Source: a virus
Reading direction: 5' to 3' (one strand)
Virus record (IMG/VR): IMGVR_UViG_3300012314_000001
Length of the DNA stretch: 64,000 bases
Part shown: piece after piece, positions 27,367-40,139 of the stretch
Numbering within the stretch: the first letter of the stretch is position 1
Layout: every line of letters begins with the position of its first letter
Notes under the pieces: model-generated
What the model was told of the DNA's origin: nothing
Database searches by the model: none
What the model saw: only the letters and a program-made list of their open reading frames with translations
Position numbers and translations under genes: made by a program

Positions 27367-28023
27367 TTACTTGGTTTCTAGCATGATGCAAGAGCAGTGA
27401 ATATTGTCGGTGCTTTGGGGGTCGGTGTCGCTCAGCAGGGCCCAAAGTGGGTGTCCGATGGGCAGTTCGAGGTAAATGTCGTCGGCGGTGACGGTGTCCG
27501 GGGATTGGATAATCGTGACCGCGGGAGAGTGGACGATTTGATCCCAGGCAATGGTATCGCCGTCATAGTCTTCGATGAGTGGTGCAAGGAATTCTTGGTC
27601 GGTAAGTTCCGTGTCGCCGTGGTAGTGGTATGCGGCGAGGCAGTGTATAGAGGTGTAGATTCCGGAGTTGGTGAGGTTGAGGTGTCCACCGCTGGGGGCC
27701 ACATGGTGTGCGCTGGAGGTGAAGGTTACGAATTCGCCTTGGGTTTTGGTGGTGAGGTTAGCAATGGTGATGTAGTCGAGTGTGGAGCCGTGTGCGGAGT
27801 GTGCGAGGGATGTGAGGGTGTTGGGGTTGCGGGTGAGTTCGGTGTGGATGAGTGGGTTGAGCCAGGGGAGTGTGGGTTCGATTTGGTCGTTGTAGAAGGT
27901 GAGTAGGGTGTCGTTGGTGTTTGTGGGTTCGGGTGTGATGCCTGTGCCGAGGAGGGTTGCGGCGTGTGGGGTGTTTTCTGGTGTGATGTAGGTGCGGTGG
28001 CGGGTGAGTTGGTATTGCGTCAT
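27367..28023 (-). CDS. hypothetical protein (218 aa), tandem paralog
   Basis: See previous. Confidence 0.45.
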   Translation of the reverse strand: MTQYQLTRHRTYITPENTPHAATLLGTGITPEPTNTNDTLLTFYNDQIEPTLPWLNPLIHTELTRNPNTLTSLAHSAHGSTLDYITIANLTTKTQGEFVTFTSSAHHVAPSGGHLNLTNSGIYTSIHCLAAYHYHGDTELTDQEFLAPLIEDYDGDTIAWDQIVHSPAVTIIQSPDTVTADDIYLELPIGHPLWALLSDTDPQSTDNIHCSCIMLETK

Positions 28024-28152: not shown

Positions 28153-28581
28153 ATGGACCCCCACACCCTCAACCTCGCCTACCGAATCACCACAACCCAC
28201 ACCCCCATCCACCCCGACACCCTCAACACCACCGTCTACCTCACCAACATCATCGAAAAAATCACCACCGACACCTACGCCACCCCCACCACCTTCTACC
28301 CACACGACAACACGCTCAAAACCCAAGAAATCAACACGCTTACCCTCCACAACAACCACATCACCACCAACTCCTTCCGCCCCTACTTCATCGTGCCACC
28401 CACCCACTTAGACGACAGTATCGGCTTAGCAATCGCAGCTATCGGCACTCTCACCGCCCAAGAACTCAGCGCCACTATCACCAACACACCGCCCTATATT
28501 CATGCTGTGGAACAAGGAACCCCCATTAACCTTGACGAAGCGGCGGAATACTACACTCAGCTTTGGAACCCGAGCGCATAG
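28153..28581 (+). CDS. hypothetical Thr-rich protein (142 aa)
   Basis: Strong RBS aaaggagacacc before the ATG. Preferred over the overlapping His/Pro-rich ORF 28053-28529. Confidence 0.45.
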   Translation: MDPHTLNLAYRITTTHTPIHPDTLNTTVYLTNIIEKITTDTYATPTTFYPHDNTLKTQEINTLTLHNNHITTNSFRPYFIVPPTHLDDSIGLAIAAIGTLTAQELSATITNTPPYIHAVEQGTPINLDEAAEYYTQLWNPSA

Positions 28582-28592
28582 GAAAGACACCA

Positions 28593-28907
28593 ATGTACGA
28601 CATATTTAACATCAACACTATCTCCGGAAAAACGTACCAGTATATCCTTGATCCTGCCGTTTCTGAAAACAAGGTCGTTATCAAAGACACAGCATGCATC
28701 TGCATTGTAGGATCGGGAGAAGTATTCGATTCCTTAATATCCGATGTCTGCGACGAAACAGGTCTTCACTATGGGCGGGCAAAACCCTATGACGCCTCCC
28801 GGTGGATATACTTCTGTCCTGGCGTCTACCTTAATGCGCACACTGTTGAATCAGTAGTGCGTACAAAAATTCCCGGTACGGAATACAAACAACTCCGAAG
28901 CAAATAG
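28593..28907 (+). CDS. hypothetical Cys-containing protein (104 aa)
   Basis: RBS aggaaaga before ATG 28593. Confidence 0.4.
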   Translation: MYDIFNINTISGKTYQYILDPAVSENKVVIKDTACICIVGSGEVFDSLISDVCDETGLHYGRAKPYDASRWIYFCPGVYLNAHTVESVVRTKIPGTEYKQLRSK

Positions 28908-28926
28908 CCCTGACGCAGGCATATAA

Positions 28927-28974
28927 AACCGGCCCCTAGAAGACAAAAACCAAAACTTCTAGAGGCCGGTTTAC
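28927..28974. terminator. bidirectional rho-independent terminator (aaccggcccctagaag...cttctagaggccggtt)
   Basis: 14-bp near-perfect stem flanked by A/T runs, between convergent genes. Confidence 0.6.
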
Positions 28975-29238
28975 CTATTCCCTACGGAACGAGGACCCTA
29001 ACCCTCGCCCCACAGTCAGTCTACACGACATGCTTTGTTTTGTGGTTGTAATATGCGGGAAAGATAGCAGATTATTCACGCGAAGAAAACCCCCGGTATT
29101 GAAACACAAATACCGGGGGAGAACAGGTTTTAAAAACTCGAAAAATGCATCAAATGCTATTCTCGGAAGCGGCGCGTGGCACGTATTTCAGAGCTGCTAC
29201 CACGCCTAAGTATATAGCATGCGATCTAAGGCGGTCAA

Positions 29239-29718
29239 CTAAAGGCTTTCAAACGATATATCCTCGGCAATATCGCCGGGATCTAGAACAGGGTTTTCGG
29301 CCTGAACCGCCTTGTCCCACGCTGATCCCTTAATTTTTGTTGCCTCACAAACTTCTAGTGTCGATAGGTTGCGCGTTTTCTCCCATACACGAAGCAAAGC
29401 CACGTTTAGCTCAACGTCCTGGGACTTATCAGGCACAAATACTTTGCCAGAAGCAGTTTGGCAGTAGCGGGTGATTCGGCCTTGGGGATTGTCGGAGAAC
29501 TGGTTGGCAAGGGAGTGGAGTGCGGGGCCGTGTTCCCAGGTGCAATAAGGCTCGCCGATGAGTTCTCTGCCTGTATTTTTCTGATAATGAGTCTCAATAA
29601 GGAATACGATACGCTGCAACTTCGGAAGGTTCAGCGGACTATTATCACGAAAAGAAAACTCCAGCACACTGTTAGCAACATGTGTCGCAAAATACGCCAT
29701 GAAACGCCTCCTCCACAA
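29239..29718 (-). CDS. Panacea-domain (DUF4065, SocA/PanA antitoxin-like) protein
   Basis: KLQRIVFLIETHYQKNTGRELIGEPYCTWEHGPALHSL matches the Panacea core (KLQKLLYyaq....g.pl....f.aw.hGPV..ly). Confidence 0.6.
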   Translation of the reverse strand: MWRRRFMAYFATHVANSVLEFSFRDNSPLNLPKLQRIVFLIETHYQKNTGRELIGEPYCTWEHGPALHSLANQFSDNPQGRITRYCQTASGKVFVPDKSQDVELNVALLRVWEKTRNLSTLEVCEATKIKGSAWDKAVQAENPVLDPGDIAEDISFESL

Positions 29719-29757
29719 AAAGGGCCGAGAAACTTATGTCCCGGCCCAACCTCATGG

Positions 29758-30813
29758 CTAATTATTCTCGTAGAACCAACTCGGAAGATTCCGCGGCTCA
29801 TCATCAGAACTGGAGCTGCTATTACCATTCGACCGCGGGGACTTCGTCACAGTAGTCGTCTCCGTCGTAGTCTGAACCTCAGCGTCAGCAACATCCTTTT
29901 CTAGCTGCTTAATGCGCTCATCCTTGTCCTTGACCCAGCCGTCACGTTCAGCAACCTTGCCTTCGGCGTCTTGTACTCGGCGGTTAAGGTCGTCCACCTG
30001 CTTTTGGAGATCCTCAGCGCTGTCACCAGAATCCGAGGCGTCCTTGGTGGCCTGATCGCGTTCCTTTACGAGCTTGTCTACTTCAGCTTGCAGTTCAGTG
30101 ACCTTTTGCTGGTTTTCTTCGTTTTCGTCTTCAGCGGACTTGTGGAAGGGGGAGCCGAGGGCAAGTAGGAGAATGGAGATGAGGGCTAGTATGCCGGTGG
30201 CGATAGCGAGGGCGGTGGACTTTTTGGAGGTGGAGTCGAGTTTTTCCTGATTTGCGTCTAGATCGTCTTCTACTTCCTTTAGTCGGGTAGTAAGTTCCCG
30301 GTTGTCTGCCTCCGCGGCGCGTAGCTTGTCTTTAGCGACGTCAAGAGAGGTGATGTTGCGGTTTCCGTCGGGGGAGTAATCTTCGTAGGTAGTGTTGCCG
30401 GGGAAAATTTGTTGCGGGGTATCTGGGTGGGTGTCTACGGGTGGGATGTTGGGGTCGGTGTTGTAGGAGTGGAAGATTTCGGTGGGTTGTTCTTCAGAGC
30501 GGTCGTAGTCGCGGTTGTAGTTGTTGCGTTCATGGCCGCGGTCAAAGTCACGGCGGTCTCCTCGGCGGGGGTCGTTGTTGAATTCACGGTCATCATAAGG
30601 GTCGTAGTTGTTGTCTGCCCGGTATTCTTGTTCGCTGCGGTTGGTGTAGTTGTCGTTGCGATGGAGGTCGCGGTTATTGTGGGGGTAGCGGCGTGCGTTT
30701 CCTTGTGCCGAGTTGTTGTTTTGTACATCGCCCATGTTTTTGTGGGGTCCGTAGGTTTGGCGGTATACGTCATTGAGTCGATCGTATTTTCCATTATCAT
30801 TCGGGTAGGTCAT
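29758..30813 (-). CDS. low-complexity N/D/R-rich protein with central TM helix and coiled-coil C-terminal half, immediately upstream of and co-oriented with the Panacea gene
   Basis: Start at the ATG with aaggaa RBS. TM segment ALAIATGILALISILLLALG. Heptad-like ELQAEVDKLVKERDQATKD... Confidence 0.45.
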   Translation of the reverse strand: MTYPNDNGKYDRLNDVYRQTYGPHKNMGDVQNNNSAQGNARRYPHNNRDLHRNDNYTNRSEQEYRADNNYDPYDDREFNNDPRRGDRRDFDRGHERNNYNRDYDRSEEQPTEIFHSYNTDPNIPPVDTHPDTPQQIFPGNTTYEDYSPDGNRNITSLDVAKDKLRAAEADNRELTTRLKEVEDDLDANQEKLDSTSKKSTALAIATGILALISILLLALGSPFHKSAEDENEENQQKVTELQAEVDKLVKERDQATKDASDSGDSAEDLQKQVDDLNRRVQDAEGKVAERDGWVKDKDERIKQLEKDVADAEVQTTTETTTVTKSPRSNGNSSSSSDDEPRNLPSWFYENN

Positions 30814-30937
30814 GGTGCTGATGTTCCTTCTGGGGTTATTTGTTGTTTGTGCCAACACTAGCAGGGTCTGGCGGTTGGCTCCAATTTTTCTTAAAACGAG
30901 TATATTTTAACATATTTAAATCTGATACCATGCACCC

Positions 30938-31636
30938 ATGGACTTTAACCACACCCCAGAACTCATACCCAACAACCTACCTCCAGCAGACAGACGATAC
31001 GCCCGACACGAACTCTTCCGAGCATTCCCCTGGGCAGTCTGGAACTCCAGCGCACTAGAAGGCTACAACTTCACCCTCAGCGAAGTCGAGTCCATCATTA
31101 ACGGCTACGCGCCCGGAAACTATCCTATTGACCACATCGATGACGTCCGCGGTATTGCCGCAGGATGGAAAACAGCCCTACAAGCCATGGATCAAGGGGA
31201 AGAAGCAGACGAAAATCTTGCCCGACAAATCAACTACGCCATCACACAAAAAACCAGCCTCGCGCCGGGCCAGTTCCGCGGCGAATCTACACACGTTCAT
31301 GGCGACGGCGGCAATGTACGCACCCCGCGGGGCTTGTATGTTGCGCCGCGCCCGGAAGAGATCAAACCCCTCTGGGACGACTTTGCTATTGACGACCCGG
31401 TGCAGCGCAGTTTCTTACGCATCCCTTTCATCGCCCGCCTGCAGCCTTTCTGGGACGGAAACAAACGCACAGCACTTATGCTCTCCGCAGTAGACCTCAT
31501 CAACAATGGCATGCCCCCGCTGATCGTGGAAAGCCACAACTTCGACCAATGGCACGACGCCCTTACCTGCCTATTCATTGACAACAACGCCGACCCAGTC
31601 CTCGAAGTACTCACCGGCTCCATTCTAAAAATGTAG
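30938..31636 (+). CDS. Fic/Doc-family protein with Doc-type motif in which the catalytic His is replaced by Gln (QPFWDGNKRTAL)
   Basis: Fic N-terminal region (WNSSALEGYNFTLSEVESIINGY). Core motif FWDGNKRTALML, compared with Doc HxFxDGNKRTAL. Codon CAG read at the His position. Confidence 0.65.
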   Translation: MDFNHTPELIPNNLPPADRRYARHELFRAFPWAVWNSSALEGYNFTLSEVESIINGYAPGNYPIDHIDDVRGIAAGWKTALQAMDQGEEADENLARQINYAITQKTSLAPGQFRGESTHVHGDGGNVRTPRGLYVAPRPEEIKPLWDDFAIDDPVQRSFLRIPFIARLQPFWDGNKRTALMLSAVDLINNGMPPLIVESHNFDQWHDALTCLFIDNNADPVLEVLTGSILKM

Positions 31637-36473: not shown

Positions 36474-38444
36474 TTAAACGTACATCCAGTGGTCACCCAT
36501 GAAGTTAGCGTCCGAGCCGAGAAAAACTTCACGGCCCGCAGCAGCATTAAGCCAGTCTGGTGGGGTGACCATGATTTCTTGGATTTCTTTTTCTGCCTCC
36601 GAGTCTACAACAAGCTCATCGTGAATAGCGAGAATGATGGCGTCATCGAGGCCTGCTTTGTGGATATTGTTGATTGTTTCCGACAGCATGGAGTAGGCGG
36701 TTCCTTGCACAATGTAGTTCATGGCGCGGTAGCCCACATACGGGTCGGTATCCCAGGGCCTGTTATTGTCGGGGAAGTTTTCTGGCACGGTCAAACCACG
36801 CCCGTCAACGGTGCGGATAAATCCTTGTTTGCCTGCGACGTTTTTAACCCGGTTGAGGAAATCAACGGTGGGCTGCATGGCGGCGTTGTACTGGTTTTTA
36901 ATGTTGGTGGCTTCATCTAGAGATACACCTAAGTTGGACGCCAACAGAGCCTTTCCTTGGCCGTACATATTCGCCAGCACCACTGTTTTTGCTTTTTTGC
37001 GGCCTGGGTGGTCTTTGGCTTCCTTTTCGCTAAGTTCTTGTGGGATAAGGCCCGCGATTTTAGCGGAAGGGATGTACAAGTCGCCGCCCTTATTAAAGTC
37101 AACAAGGTAGTCAAAATCGTGTGCCACGTTGGTAAGCACAACAGGCTCAATGGACGACCAGTCAATGGATGTCCAAGATCGTCCTGGATCGGCATGCAAA
37201 ATAGGTCGGGCACGATCCGGGAATTGCTGAAGCTCAGGATAGCGGTAAGACATGCGGCCTGTGGCGTGAGCTCCAAGTACTCCTACCTCGGGGTGGACTC
37301 TGCCGGTAACATTTGCCATGGCAATGATTTTGTCCAAGTAGGTCAGAATCTTGTCGTGTTCTTTAAGGTCGGTGGCGAGTTTGATAAGTGGGTGGCCGAG
37401 TTTTTTGGTTTCCTTTTTCGACGCGGACAAGAGTCCCGATGCGGTAATCGGCCAGTCGGAGGGCAAACGGTCGGTGTAGTGCAGGTAGTTGATTACTTCC
37501 TGGGTGATTTTACCTGGTGAGGAGTCTAGGCCGAGGTCTTCAAAGACGGACATTTTCTCGTCCTTTGATTTTTCAAACTCGGCGCGGAAAGAGTGCGCGT
37601 AGTCCAAGTCGGCGTAGATACCAATAGCGGATCGTCGCATCATAACGTGGTTGGTGGTTTGTTCGCGTTGGATAAGGCGACGGATCTGGTCAGCGGGGTT
37701 TCCTGTAAATCCGGCAGATGGTGCGCGGTTGGCAAAGTCGCGTTGTTGGTTGTACACAGCATTGTACAGGGGGCGCAAAAGCCTCAGTGTAGCAACAGTA
37801 TCGGCCATGGCACCTGCCCGGTAGACGGGGTCAATAACAGTGGAGTTGCGGAAACCCATATCCGCTTTGGTGTATTTTTCACCAGTCACCTCATCTACTG
37901 CGGTTTCGTACCCCATGACTGCAAACGAGTCAGCAATTTTGCTGTTAATTTCTGGGAAGTTACAGAACTGGGTGGACAAAGTATCGAGGTCTCGACCGCC
38001 TTTTTGGGCAGTATTGTACATGCGGGCAAGAACAAGGGTGTCCCAAATTTTATAAATGTGGTCAAGTTCCATCAAACGGTTCTGGTACAGGCCAGGAACG
38101 TCGTAGGGGGCGTTATGGAGGACGAGGATTCCTGCGGCGTCAATAAGCGTAATGATTGCTTCGCGCTGGCCGGGGTTTCTAGGGTCAAGGAAGACGTTGA
38201 TGGTGCGGTTGTTTTCGTCCCATGCGGCGGTCACACAGCGGATGAAGAATTTTTCCAGGCCTTTGGTTTCAATATCAATGGCAACGGTCAGACCTACGGG
38301 TGGGTCTTGTTCGATTTTGTGTGCCGCATCTTGGGCAATGTAGCAGTGTGCTTGGGTGGTGGGGTTGTAGTAGGTGTCGCTGTCTGCCCCGAATGTGGAG
38401 TGAGGGAGGGTGAGGGTTCTTTCGGGGATGGGGAGGTGCGGCAT
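36474..38444 (-). CDS. family A (Pol I-like) DNA polymerase with N-terminal 3'-5' proofreading exonuclease, phage/plasmid type
   Basis: Exonuclease motifs AIDIETKGL and LVLHNAPYDVPGL. Polymerase motif B RKKAKTVVLANMYGQG and motif C ILAIHDELVVD. Confidence 0.8.
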   Translation of the reverse strand: MPHLPIPERTLTLPHSTFGADSDTYYNPTTQAHCYIAQDAAHKIEQDPPVGLTVAIDIETKGLEKFFIRCVTAAWDENNRTINVFLDPRNPGQREAIITLIDAAGILVLHNAPYDVPGLYQNRLMELDHIYKIWDTLVLARMYNTAQKGGRDLDTLSTQFCNFPEINSKIADSFAVMGYETAVDEVTGEKYTKADMGFRNSTVIDPVYRAGAMADTVATLRLLRPLYNAVYNQQRDFANRAPSAGFTGNPADQIRRLIQREQTTNHVMMRRSAIGIYADLDYAHSFRAEFEKSKDEKMSVFEDLGLDSSPGKITQEVINYLHYTDRLPSDWPITASGLLSASKKETKKLGHPLIKLATDLKEHDKILTYLDKIIAMANVTGRVHPEVGVLGAHATGRMSYRYPELQQFPDRARPILHADPGRSWTSIDWSSIEPVVLTNVAHDFDYLVDFNKGGDLYIPSAKIAGLIPQELSEKEAKDHPGRKKAKTVVLANMYGQGKALLASNLGVSLDEATNIKNQYNAAMQPTVDFLNRVKNVAGKQGFIRTVDGRGLTVPENFPDNNRPWDTDPYVGYRAMNYIVQGTAYSMLSETINNIHKAGLDDAIILAIHDELVVDSEAEKEIQEIMVTPPDWLNAAAGREVFLGSDANFMGDHWMYV

Positions 38445-39011: not shown

Positions 39012-40139
39012 CTACCTACATCCCAAAAGAGATGCAGGATTTACGCTATCATCAACGGAAGGGTTGAAACCAGCCCTTAACAGCATATTACGTGCCGCAT
39101 TAACATCACGATCAATAGTGGTACCACAAAAGTCACAATGAAAAACTCTTGTACCCAGATCTAACTTGGCCTTGGCTCTCGTACCACAGTTAGAACAATC
39201 CATCGTCGTGTAATGAGGATCAATAACAAAAACGTCACTGCCGAATGTTTGGCACGCAGAGATAAGCTCCCGCTTTGCAATACCAATACCAATATCGGCA
39301 GACTTTTTTGCCATATTTTTCTTCTTAAACAAAAACGTCGACTTAAAATCCTCCACAGCAACAGTCTTATTGTGACGAGCTACATGCTGAGCCCATTTAC
39401 GAGACTGTTCCCGCCTTTGTCTTTTTACTCGACGCTCCAGCTTGGCTTTCTTCTTTTTAGCCTTACGATACTTCTCCCACTCTTGTTTGGCTTTAAGACG
39501 AGCCATTCGACGCTGATATTTAGCTAACGCTTTGGCGTTTTCTTTAACACGTGGTGTGTATCCTAAATCGAAACCAGGACGGGAGGTTGTTGCTGGGGTT
39601 TTAACTCCCCAGTCAATGCCGATCTGTCCGTCATTGTCACGAGAACGTGTTTGTGGTTCAGTGTCTACAACAAAAGACGCCCACCAGTCACCGCACGAGT
39701 CTTTAAACACTCGTACAGAACTTGGTTCAGACGGAAGGTTTCTAGACCACACCACAGGGATAACAATGTTTCCTGCTAGTTTTAGTCGCCCAGCTTTGGT
39801 GATGCTAAATCCTCGTGTGGTGTAGTTGAGTGAGGGTTTGTGGATTCGTTTTGATTTAAAGCGTGGGGCTTTACGAATCTTGTTGAAGAATGCTTTTTTA
39901 GCAGTTATGAAGTCCCTAACTATTTGTTGTTGGGGAACTACTGGCTGATCACGTAGCCATTCGTGTTCTTTTCGCCATGTAGTTACTTGTTTCATTAGGG
40001 AGGTTTGGTTTGTGTTTTCGCGTTTGTTGAACACTTCTACACACTGATTCCAAATCCAACGACACGTAGCATACTGCTGGTTAAGACTGTGTTGTGCAGT
40101 CTTTCCAGGTCGTAATTTGTACGTGTAGCGTTTCTTCAC
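39012..40139 (-). CDS. tnpB: TnpB (IS605 OrfB-type RuvC-like, RNA-guided nuclease family)
   Basis: RuvC-I IGIDWGVKT. C-terminal zinc finger CSNCG...CDFCG. RuvC-III DRDVNAARNM. 375 aa. Confidence 0.8.
   Translation of the reverse strand: MKKRYTYKLRPGKTAQHSLNQQYATCRWIWNQCVEVFNKRENTNQTSLMKQVTTWRKEHEWLRDQPVVPQQQIVRDFITAKKAFFNKIRKAPRFKSKRIHKPSLNYTTRGFSITKAGRLKLAGNIVIPVVWSRNLPSEPSSVRVFKDSCGDWWASFVVDTEPQTRSRDNDGQIGIDWGVKTPATTSRPGFDLGYTPRVKENAKALAKYQRRMARLKAKQEWEKYRKAKKKKAKLERRVKRQRREQSRKWAQHVARHNKTVAVEDFKSTFLFKKKNMAKKSADIGIGIAKRELISACQTFGSDVFVIDPHYTTMDCSNCGTRAKAKLDLGTRVFHCDFCGTTIDRDVNAARNMLLRAGFNPSVDDSVNPASLLGCR

Follow-up and report, generated by a model that had tools for sequence, protein, structure and literature searches.

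The stretch of DNA analysed here, 64,000 nt from the IMG/VR virus record IMGVR_UViG_3300012314_000001 (hereafter the window), carries a gene for a 351-amino-acid (aa) membrane protein, p351, followed by one for a standalone Panacea-domain protein, PanA. Both open reading frames (ORFs) were found on the minus strand, at the interval where an initial annotation had proposed an atypical toxin-antitoxin (TA) pair. They are real, maintained genes under purifying selection, with ratios of nonsynonymous to synonymous divergence (dN/dS) of 0.04-0.24. Our preferred reading, which we put forward tentatively and with less than even confidence, is that they form a PanAT-like, type II-style module in which PanA has swapped partners and p351 is a new, large membrane toxin (PanT) candidate. 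An orphan PanA is almost as likely.

PanA is a standalone Panacea-domain protein

The Panacea assignment of the initial annotation was upheld by profile search. PanA matched Pfam PF13274 (SocA_Panacea) with 37.8 bits against a gathering cut-off of 25.7 (E 4.2e-9), residues 34-134 covering model positions 1-112 of 113, and it matched phrog_1281 with 55 bits. The match to the NCBIfam family SocA_antitoxin (NF047745) reached 39 bits against an equivalog cut-off of 190, making PanA a Panacea-domain protein but not a SocA orthologue. An exhaustive phmmer search of 1.84 billion representative proteins returned 515 homologues at E<=1e-3, of which 112 reached E<=1e-10; most of the alignments span residues 1-150. 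Beyond the protein's own 90% cluster and lineage, the closest of these share about 40-43% identity in a full-length match. Five residues (N10, Q29, G58, W106 and W128) are invariant in the homologue alignment. PanA is a cytosolic protein of a single domain, nothing having been added at the N- or C-terminus.

The AlphaFold2 (AF2) model of PanA, built on a 25-sequence alignment, has a mean predicted local distance difference test (pLDDT) score of 95.6 and a predicted template modelling score (pTM) of 0.91. It predicts helices at residues 5-19, 25-43, 62-67, 96-109, 114-120 and 127-133 and strands at about 53-60, an arrangement that fits the Panacea fold of a helical bundle around a central helix with a small three-stranded sheet. 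When the model was compared with BFVD using Foldseek, template modelling scores of 0.69-0.77 were obtained to viral or phage proteins of about 150 aa. The match named 'Antitoxin SocA-like Panacea domain-containing protein' stood at rank 8 with a score of only 0.44-0.51, and fold and sequence searches of the PDB with PanA returned no comparable structure. Beyond the last core helix (127-133) there is one short helix (141-145). The Pfam match ends at residue 134 of 153 and the protein ends about 19 residues past the Panacea core, with no two-helix Phd-C extension.

The conserved GPV motif, which is located in strand beta-2 of Panacea (Kurata et al. 2022, PMC8832971), reads GPA here. The window's lineage has W-E-H-G-P-A where relatives have W-A-Y-G-P-V; the glycine and proline are retained, the valine is replaced by alanine and the preceding tyrosine by histidine. 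In the PanA of V. harveyi a single V to S change is tolerated, function being lost only in the G/V double mutant.

Boundaries of the two-gene unit

The features of the locus are as follows.

29758-30813, minus strand: p351, candidate PanT of 351 aa, ORF from ATG
29239-29700, minus strand: PanA, 153-aa standalone Panacea/DUF4065 protein, with a GGAGGAGG ribosome-binding site at 29714-29707
29722-29747, minus strand: intercistronic stem-loop between p351 and PanA, from a terminator-like match and folding
29090-29119, minus strand: intrinsic terminator closing the p351-PanA unit, from a terminator scan
30814-30937, no strand assigned: AT-rich divergent intergenic region of 124 nt between p351 and the Fic-like gene, read from the sequence
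30938-31636, plus strand: Fic/Doc-like gene, upstream of and divergent from p351

PanA almost certainly starts at ATG 29700, judging from the surrounding sequence, homologue alignments and existing gene calls. The initial annotation had placed the start at TTG 29718, giving a protein of 159 aa and a gap of 40 bp. That codon lies inside the U-run of a hairpin, and the ATG is preceded by GGAGGAGG; the 153-aa form is the one in public gene calls, and its first residue is where homologue alignments begin. The protein is thus 153 aa long and the spacer between the genes is 57 nt (TAG 29758-29760 to ATG 29700). A longer p351 could start in frame at GTG 30858, 15 residues earlier, but no ribosome-binding site precedes that codon.

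Since a divergent Fic-like gene stands on one side and a terminator on the other, the operon comprises at most two genes. The genes beyond the PanA terminators are convergent with PanA, nothing is encoded between PanA and its terminator, and there is no other adjacent partner candidate. With its divergent upstream region, short spacer and strong terminator, the pair is an isolated, co-oriented two-gene unit, and the promoter presumably lies within 30814-30937. Kurata et al. (2022, PMC8832971) recognised TA-like loci by a distance of no more than 100 nt between the genes, occurrence in at least two species and an operon of not more than three genes. The p351-PanA unit formally falls within all three limits, the species in question all belonging to one syntenic genus.

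Architecture of p351

The following segments can be distinguished in p351.

about aa 25-110: variable low-complexity region rich in N, D, R and Y (composition)
aa 112-150: conserved Pro-rich motif (lineage alignment)
aa 156-196: helix before the transmembrane (TM) segment (AF2)
about aa 201-221: TM helix (Kyte-Doolittle 2.7; AF2 helix 201-218)
aa 227-318: acidic coiled coil (AF2 helices 227-262 and 266-318)
C-terminus, ending PSWFYENN: S/T-rich tail (composition)

This agrees with the layout first described, namely an N/D/R-rich disordered N-terminus, one TM helix and a charged coiled-coil C-terminal half. Validated membrane PanTs have a similar plan, a charged disordered N-terminus and then a TM helix. 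Residues 1-150 contain 15% N, 14% D, 11% R and 9% Y and are predicted to be disordered; outside the predicted helices the AF2 model has pLDDT values below 50. Because lysines (KK) precede the TM helix and an acidic run follows it, the positive-inside rule would give p351 an N-in/C-out orientation, with some 200 residues on the cytoplasmic side and some 125 beyond the membrane.

Searches of Pfam, NCBIfam, PADLOC, PHROGs and the PDB with p351 returned only generic coiled-coil and low-complexity noise. A word-indexed search of 5.8 billion proteins found three clusters only, at 75-93% identity over the aligned region. Two of these match p351 from end to end at 86-93% identity; the third, a fragment of 202 aa, covers 52% of the query at 75% identity. 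No homologues were found by tblastn in phages or plasmids, nor in a scan of viral contigs. Among detectable homologues, p351 appears to be confined to one uncultured genus.

Conservation is unevenly spread along the protein. Lineage variants of p351 range from 342 to 373 aa, and all of the indels are in-frame and fall within aa 25-110. The remainder, aa 112-351, is 87.5-100% identical among these variants, with dN/dS of 0.04-0.06 as against 0.11-0.23 for aa 1-111. The corresponding values for PanA are 0.10-0.24.

Distribution of the pair

PanA was found at 89-100% identity in about 17 metagenomic loci; wherever these include the upstream side, p351 is there as well. The same arrangement of the two genes is seen in all lineage loci covering the region (L001-L006 and L021-L029). 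These loci share 86-91% local nucleotide identity with the window, which is under the species cut-off and therefore indicates several species-level lineages. Throughout the lineage the pair sits in a syntenic block, LCP-p89-NlpC/P60-p150-Fic<>p351-PanA><p104-p142, a neighbourhood that includes the cell-wall genes NlpC/P60 and LytR_cpsA_psr. Every detectable homologue of p351 adjoins PanA, but all of them belong to this one lineage. As the whole neighbourhood is syntenic within one genus, the conserved adjacency does not amount to independent evidence. In one locus (L002) PanA is identical to that of the window (synonymous divergence, dS, of 0), while dS is 0.43 for p351 and 0.54 for Fic, which places a recombination breakpoint between p351 and PanA.

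The proteins of the window were matched in metagenome sources only, and the locus was not found among the GTDB representative genomes. Weak family matches of window proteins (an Rv1815-type protease, Culp6 and an EccC-like protein) suggest that the carrier is probably an uncultured genus of Mycobacteriales.

Partners of the closest PanA relatives

Genome and metagenome collections were scanned with an alignment of the closest PanA relatives. In 13 of the 18 loci outside the window's lineage (L017-L019, L030-L037, L039 and L044), PanA (27-43% identity) is followed by a protein of 124-134 aa, shortened to 102 aa in L036, usually with a 4-nt overlap between its gene and the PanA stop codon. The other five loci have no obvious co-oriented partner. 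Members of this family of about 130 aa have a charged N-terminus, a KLQ(F/Y)GQKLI motif and two hydrophobic segments ending in IELLKLVTTTALGFVFAKT; a TM segment is followed by an invariant IELLKLVTTTALGFVFA(K/R). The two-TM protein is likely to be the cognate membrane toxin of the nearest PanA clade. By dataset description rather than by sequence, the family is probably cluster T31 of Kurata et al., termed 'CrgA-like' (Actinomyces, C. glucuronolyticum).

A six-frame hmmsearch of the window for this family found no remnant (best E 3.9), and hhalign gave a probability of 0.8% for its relationship to p351, indicating that the two are unrelated. PanA in the window's lineage has thus either taken p351 as a new partner or been left an orphan. 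Exchange of partners within PanA clades has been documented, and toxin-first gene order occurs (PMC8832971). The partners of the nearest clade are membrane proteins with a charged N-terminus followed by TM segments, and it is plausible that a PanA suited to cytosolic segments next to the membrane was the donor for a new membrane partner.

RNA elements between and beyond the genes

The intercistronic stem-loop, absent from the initial annotation, has the form GGGCCGGGA-loop-UCUCGGCCC, followed by UUUUUGUGG running into the PanA ribosome-binding site. The 71-nt intercistronic region folds at -27.4 kcal/mol (z -3.1), a value equalled by none of 200 shuffles. The stem has been kept in four diverged lineages with one C to U change that gives a G.U pair, one bulged A and a varying loop. 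In L021-L023 the U-run has degenerated. The space between the stem-loop and the ribosome-binding site is too short for a promoter, which makes read-through, or a promoter within p351, the probable source of PanA expression. The hairpin at 29722-29747 is best viewed as an attenuator or an mRNA-stability element.

The stem of the terminator at 29119-29090 is 11 bp long, 7 of the pairs being G-C, and UUUUCUUC comes after it; the U-run is present on the minus strand only. This stem is conserved: L022 carries a compensatory C to U / G to A pair of changes, and the loop is inverted in L002, L027 and L028. A further hairpin terminator at 28926-28972 is flanked by an A-run and a T-run and is hence bidirectional. 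The initial annotation had placed a bidirectional terminator and a divergent Fic/Doc gene downstream of the pair; the hairpin and the divergent orientation stand, but the Fic gene lies upstream of the 351-aa gene.

Conservation over the 331 nt downstream of PanA far exceeds that of synonymous sites in the flanking genes, and two small RNA (sRNA)-like units can be distinguished there on the minus strand. Unit 1 (29083-29238) starts directly past the PanA stop codon with the invariant hexamers TTGACC (29238-29233, -35) and TATACT (29214-29209, -10), separated by a variable 18-nt spacer. These are followed by a variable stretch (29207-29202), a conserved body of about 80 nt and the terminator at 29119-29090; the unit has no conserved ORF. 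Unit 2 (28924-29030) has an invariant TGTCGTGTAGACT with a -10-like TAGACT at 29023-29018. The 93 nt after it are identical across 8 distinct lineage sequences, except for one A to G change that keeps a G.U pair, and the flanking genes have dS of 0.2-1.0. It folds into a 14-bp stem-loop (29015-28982), a single-stranded GGAAUAGGUAA and the 17-bp terminator (28972-28926) flanked by A- and U-runs, with G.U pairs that are valid on the minus strand only. Unit 2 is single-copy in the window and was found in 15 of 15 lineage loci. Neither unit matched a family in Rfam, a search for targets with RNAduplex over translation-initiation regions was non-discriminating, and no complementarity of at least 12 nt to the p351, PanA or Fic mRNAs was found.

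The Fic/Doc-like neighbour

The protein encoded divergently from p351 matches PF02661 with 32.3 bits (cut-off 24) and the PADLOC model SoFic with 38.6 bits. Its active-site motif, QPFWDGNKRT, departs from the consensus HxFx(D/N)(A/G)N(G/K)R in having glutamine in place of the catalytic histidine, as do 10 of 10 aligned homologues. This histidine is essential in Fic and Doc enzymes. The gene had initially been counted as a divergent Fic/Doc conflict gene, which the degenerate motif speaks against. The wider description of the locus as an island of conflict systems likewise found little backing, the Fic protein being without its catalytic histidine and the other neighbours without matches to defence families.

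Homologues of the Fic-like protein at 58-94% identity all carry the glutamine and constitute a distinct subfamily, with a full-length match to phrog_11900; the gene is split into two ORFs in L013 and L016. Homologues elsewhere (58-68% identity) have no PanA nearby and no consistent small partner. Small genes upstream of these homologues were considered as antitoxins and rejected, as they are either mutually unrelated or the N-terminal half of a split Fic gene. The Fic-like protein was also considered as the partner of PanA, following the C. doosanense precedent, and rejected as unlikely on account of its glutamine motif, its PanA-free contexts elsewhere and the absence of a Phd-C extension from PanA.

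Toxin-antitoxin pair or orphan antitoxin

If the two genes form a TA module, p351 would insert into the membrane with its N-terminus in the cytoplasm, and the coiled-coil segments flanking the membrane would drive oligomerisation. Its small-residue-rich TM helices could then bundle and depolarise or permeabilise the membrane in the manner of validated membrane PanTs, membrane disruption being a major mode of action of PanTs (Kurata et al. 2022, PMC8832971). PanA would bind the cytosolic segment before the TM helix (about aa 112-200, the Pro-rich motif and helix) and keep p351 inactive. This site is proposed by analogy with the corresponding segment of a membrane PanT: standalone Panacea proteins neutralise the toxin directly, and prediction, backed by mutagenesis, has the PanA of B. 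choladocola contacting the unstructured N-terminus and pre-TM helix of its PanT (PMC10440598). The counterpart in p351, aa 112-200, hardly varies among the lineages, in contrast to the freely variable aa 25-110. Were PanA lost or inactivated, for example during phage infection or by proteolysis, p351 would be released and growth would stop. The intercistronic stem-loop might adjust how much of each product is made, or protect a processed p351 mRNA from decay.

Several observations weigh against a TA module. In 13 of the 18 related loci the partner is a different protein, encoded downstream and overlapping PanA, and it is missing here. A conserved terminator-like stem-loop separates p351 from PanA, and recombination has separated them in L002. 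Their adjacency is confined to one genus in which the whole Fic-p351-PanA-p104-p142 block is syntenic. Contig tallies, which do not give per-genome presence, put PanA at about the frequency of the flanking LCP and NlpC/P60 genes and suggest that it is near-universal in the lineage rather than patchy. More than a third of p351, including the highly conserved aa 226-351, is predicted to be extracellular and so beyond the reach of PanA. At 351 aa the protein is also much bigger than the small transmembrane peptides that make up many of the predicted membrane PanTs, as the initial annotation had remarked. In PanA itself GPV reads GPA, and the tyrosine that is required for neutralisation in B. choladocola PanA is a histidine. 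More generally, only 9 of the 25 pairs predicted by Kurata et al. behaved as TA systems in E. coli, and eight putative PanTs were 'not toxic' (PMC8832971).

Much of this would suit a solitary PanA, with p351 an unrelated, lineage-specific envelope or membrane protein, a possibility that we rate below even odds but only slightly under the TA reading. PanA would then have lost a downstream toxin of about 130 aa, or never have had a partner in cis, and would be kept against incoming PanT-like toxins of phages and plasmids or as a sensor, while p351 would have its own envelope role beside the NlpC/P60 and LCP cell-wall genes. TA-like loci account for about half of Panacea proteins (Kurata et al. 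2022, PMC8832971), the other half lying outside them, and 5 of the 18 relatives sampled here have no obvious co-oriented partner. The missing overlapping partner of the nearest clade, the stem-loop and breakpoint between the genes, and the occurrence of both genes in roughly as many contigs as their neighbours all point the same way. So does the genomic context with NlpC/P60 and LytR_cpsA_psr, and the low dN/dS (0.04-0.06) of the C-terminal part of p351 and its predicted extracytoplasmic coiled coil would be fitting for an envelope protein. However, an orphan antitoxin would be expected to decay, whereas PanA is under constraint and present in every locus. The lack of promoter room means that PanA is most simply expressed by read-through from p351, and the locus is otherwise a clean two-gene module within the published criteria.

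It is also conceivable, but unlikely, that p351 and PanA are functionally linked in some way other than as a TA pair, PanA acting as a cytosolic sensor, chaperone or proteolytic adaptor that controls the stability or assembly of p351, which alone would not inhibit growth. SocA, the founding Panacea member, is a ClpXP adaptor and not a classical inhibitor. Sensing is proposed by Ernits et al. as the main role of the Panacea domain (PMC10440598), the eight 'not toxic' PanTs would be accommodated, and the apparent near-core distribution of the pair and the strong conservation of p351 fit a housekeeping role. Against this, PanA scores far below the SocA_antitoxin cut-off (39 against 190 bits), there is no SocB-like gene, and the stem-loop and the recombination between the genes weaken linkage of this sort as well. 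We know of no characterised precedent for a non-toxic Panacea client.

That the divergent Fic/Doc-like protein is the real partner of PanA, with p351 an inserted or accessory third gene, is the most improbable of the readings. Fic/Doc proteins are a known class of PanT (T7), validated in C. doosanense; the Fic domain here scores above the Pfam cut-off with a SoFic match besides, and Fic, p351 and PanA always co-occur in the lineage. The replacement of the catalytic histidine in all ten aligned homologues and the absence of PanA or any consistent small partner from the 58-68% identical homologues nevertheless tell against it. The genes are divergent with p351 between them, whereas T7 pairs consist of PanA and then the toxin with a gap of about -1. 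Furthermore, the PanA of C. doosanense neutralises Doc via two additional C-terminal 'Phd-C' helices (PMC10440598), which are missing from the PanA of the window. We give only a slim chance to a more elaborate proposal, in which p351 would be a new kind of effector, large, bitopic and guarded by Panacea. Phage adsorption, cell-wall damage or a similar event at the envelope would be detected by its extracytoplasmic coiled coil, and PanA would hold its conserved cytosolic segment next to the membrane. The pair would thereby constitute a transmembrane abortive-infection switch in the core genome of an uncultured Mycobacteriales genus, which the downstream sRNA-like units might regulate.

Of the TA pair as initially proposed, the Panacea assignment, the two-gene unit and the agreement with the formal criteria hold, while p351 is a candidate toxin and PanA its putative binding partner. 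Should p351 be a toxin neutralised by PanA, the Panacea network would gain a structurally unusual class of large single-pass toxins with a coiled coil outside the cell. Within one PanA clade, a two-TM toxin encoded downstream would then have been exchanged for an unrelated membrane protein encoded upstream, in a host known from metagenomes only, and this would bear on how standalone Panacea proteins recognise unrelated membrane proteins. Should p351 be non-toxic, the locus would serve as a cautionary case in which plain synteny within one genus produces a formal 'TA-like locus'. Either outcome would be an increment to a known hyperpromiscuous system and not a new principle.

Other genes of the region

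Convergent with PanA lies a two-gene plus-strand unit encoding p142 (28153-28581, 142 aa) and p104 (28593-28907, 104 aa), 11 nt apart. Neither protein has family matches, and with dN/dS of 0.25-0.57 they evolve faster than their neighbours, p104 being 68-73% identical between lineages. Next to these, on the minus strand, are ORFs of 233 aa (26658-27359) and 218 aa (27367-28023) without family matches. Their similar N-termini, MTHYTFVRHRAYVAPEDT and MTQYQLTRHRTYITPENT, mark them as putative tandem paralogues. In L022 and L023 a Band_7/SPFH gene takes the place of the 218-aa ORF. A 707-aa protein (24199-26322, plus strand) partially matches the MXAN_6230/SCO0854 RING-domain family with 126 bits, below the equivalog cut-off of 600, and phrog_33734 with 115 bits; its lineage cluster has 72 members.

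Farther away on the other side, the minus strand carries a family-A DNA polymerase-like gene (36474-38444, 656 aa) and an IS605-type TnpB gene (39012-40139; OrfB_IS605 and a Cas12f1-like TNB domain). These genes lie 6-9 kb from the pair and suggest that the region is variable or under the influence of mobile elements.

Comparison with known Panacea systems

SocA of the Caulobacter type VI TA system SocAB carries the same Panacea domain as the PanA of the window. That system differs in its ClpXP-adaptor mechanism; the window's PanA falls under the SocA equivalog cut-off and is not accompanied by a gene for a SocB-like, DnaN-binding toxin. The Doc-PanA pair of C. doosanense (T7) likewise combines an actinobacterial PanA with a nearby Fic/Doc gene, but there PanA has a Phd-C extension and is directly followed by Doc, whereas the Fic gene of the window is divergent, two genes away and lacks the catalytic histidine.

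The family of about 130 aa, found in actinobacterial metagenome contigs and genomes with PanA proteins 27-43% identical to the window's, resembles p351 in having a charged N-terminus followed by membrane segments. Its genes lie downstream of PanA with a 4-nt overlap, whereas p351 is upstream and unrelated in sequence.

T4, which includes the PanT of Helicobacter sp. 13S00482-2 as well as streptococcal phage DUF334 and SCP-1-like proteins, combines a coiled coil and a TM segment beside PanA, as p351 does. Since the Helicobacter T4 PanT is a validated membrane depolariser, neither size nor coiled coil excludes a toxin role for p351. Both T4 and p351 give generic coiled-coil matches, including one to the phage P22 tail-needle protein gp26; the likeness is one of description, DUF334 not being among the reported Pfam matches of p351. 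T4 genes lie downstream of PanA, usually overlapping it (gaps of -10 to -13, up to +6), and encode a C-terminal TM segment, in contrast to the upstream position of p351.

The membrane PanATs of groups T3, T12 and D11 (E. coli, Bartonella apis and B. choladocola) share no sequence homology with p351 on the toxin side. The window's pair further differs from them in its toxin-first order with a stem-loop, and the toxicity of p351 is a prediction. Many predicted membrane PanTs are small with a C-terminal TM segment, to which p351 adds an extracytoplasmic acidic coiled coil and tail of about 125 aa. Like the pair in the window, however, these systems have a standalone PanA of about 150 aa and genes less than 100 nt apart. 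In their toxins, as in p351, a TM segment comes after a charged or disordered N-terminus, and their predicted site of neutralisation is the cytosolic region before the TM segment, matching the one proposed here for p351.

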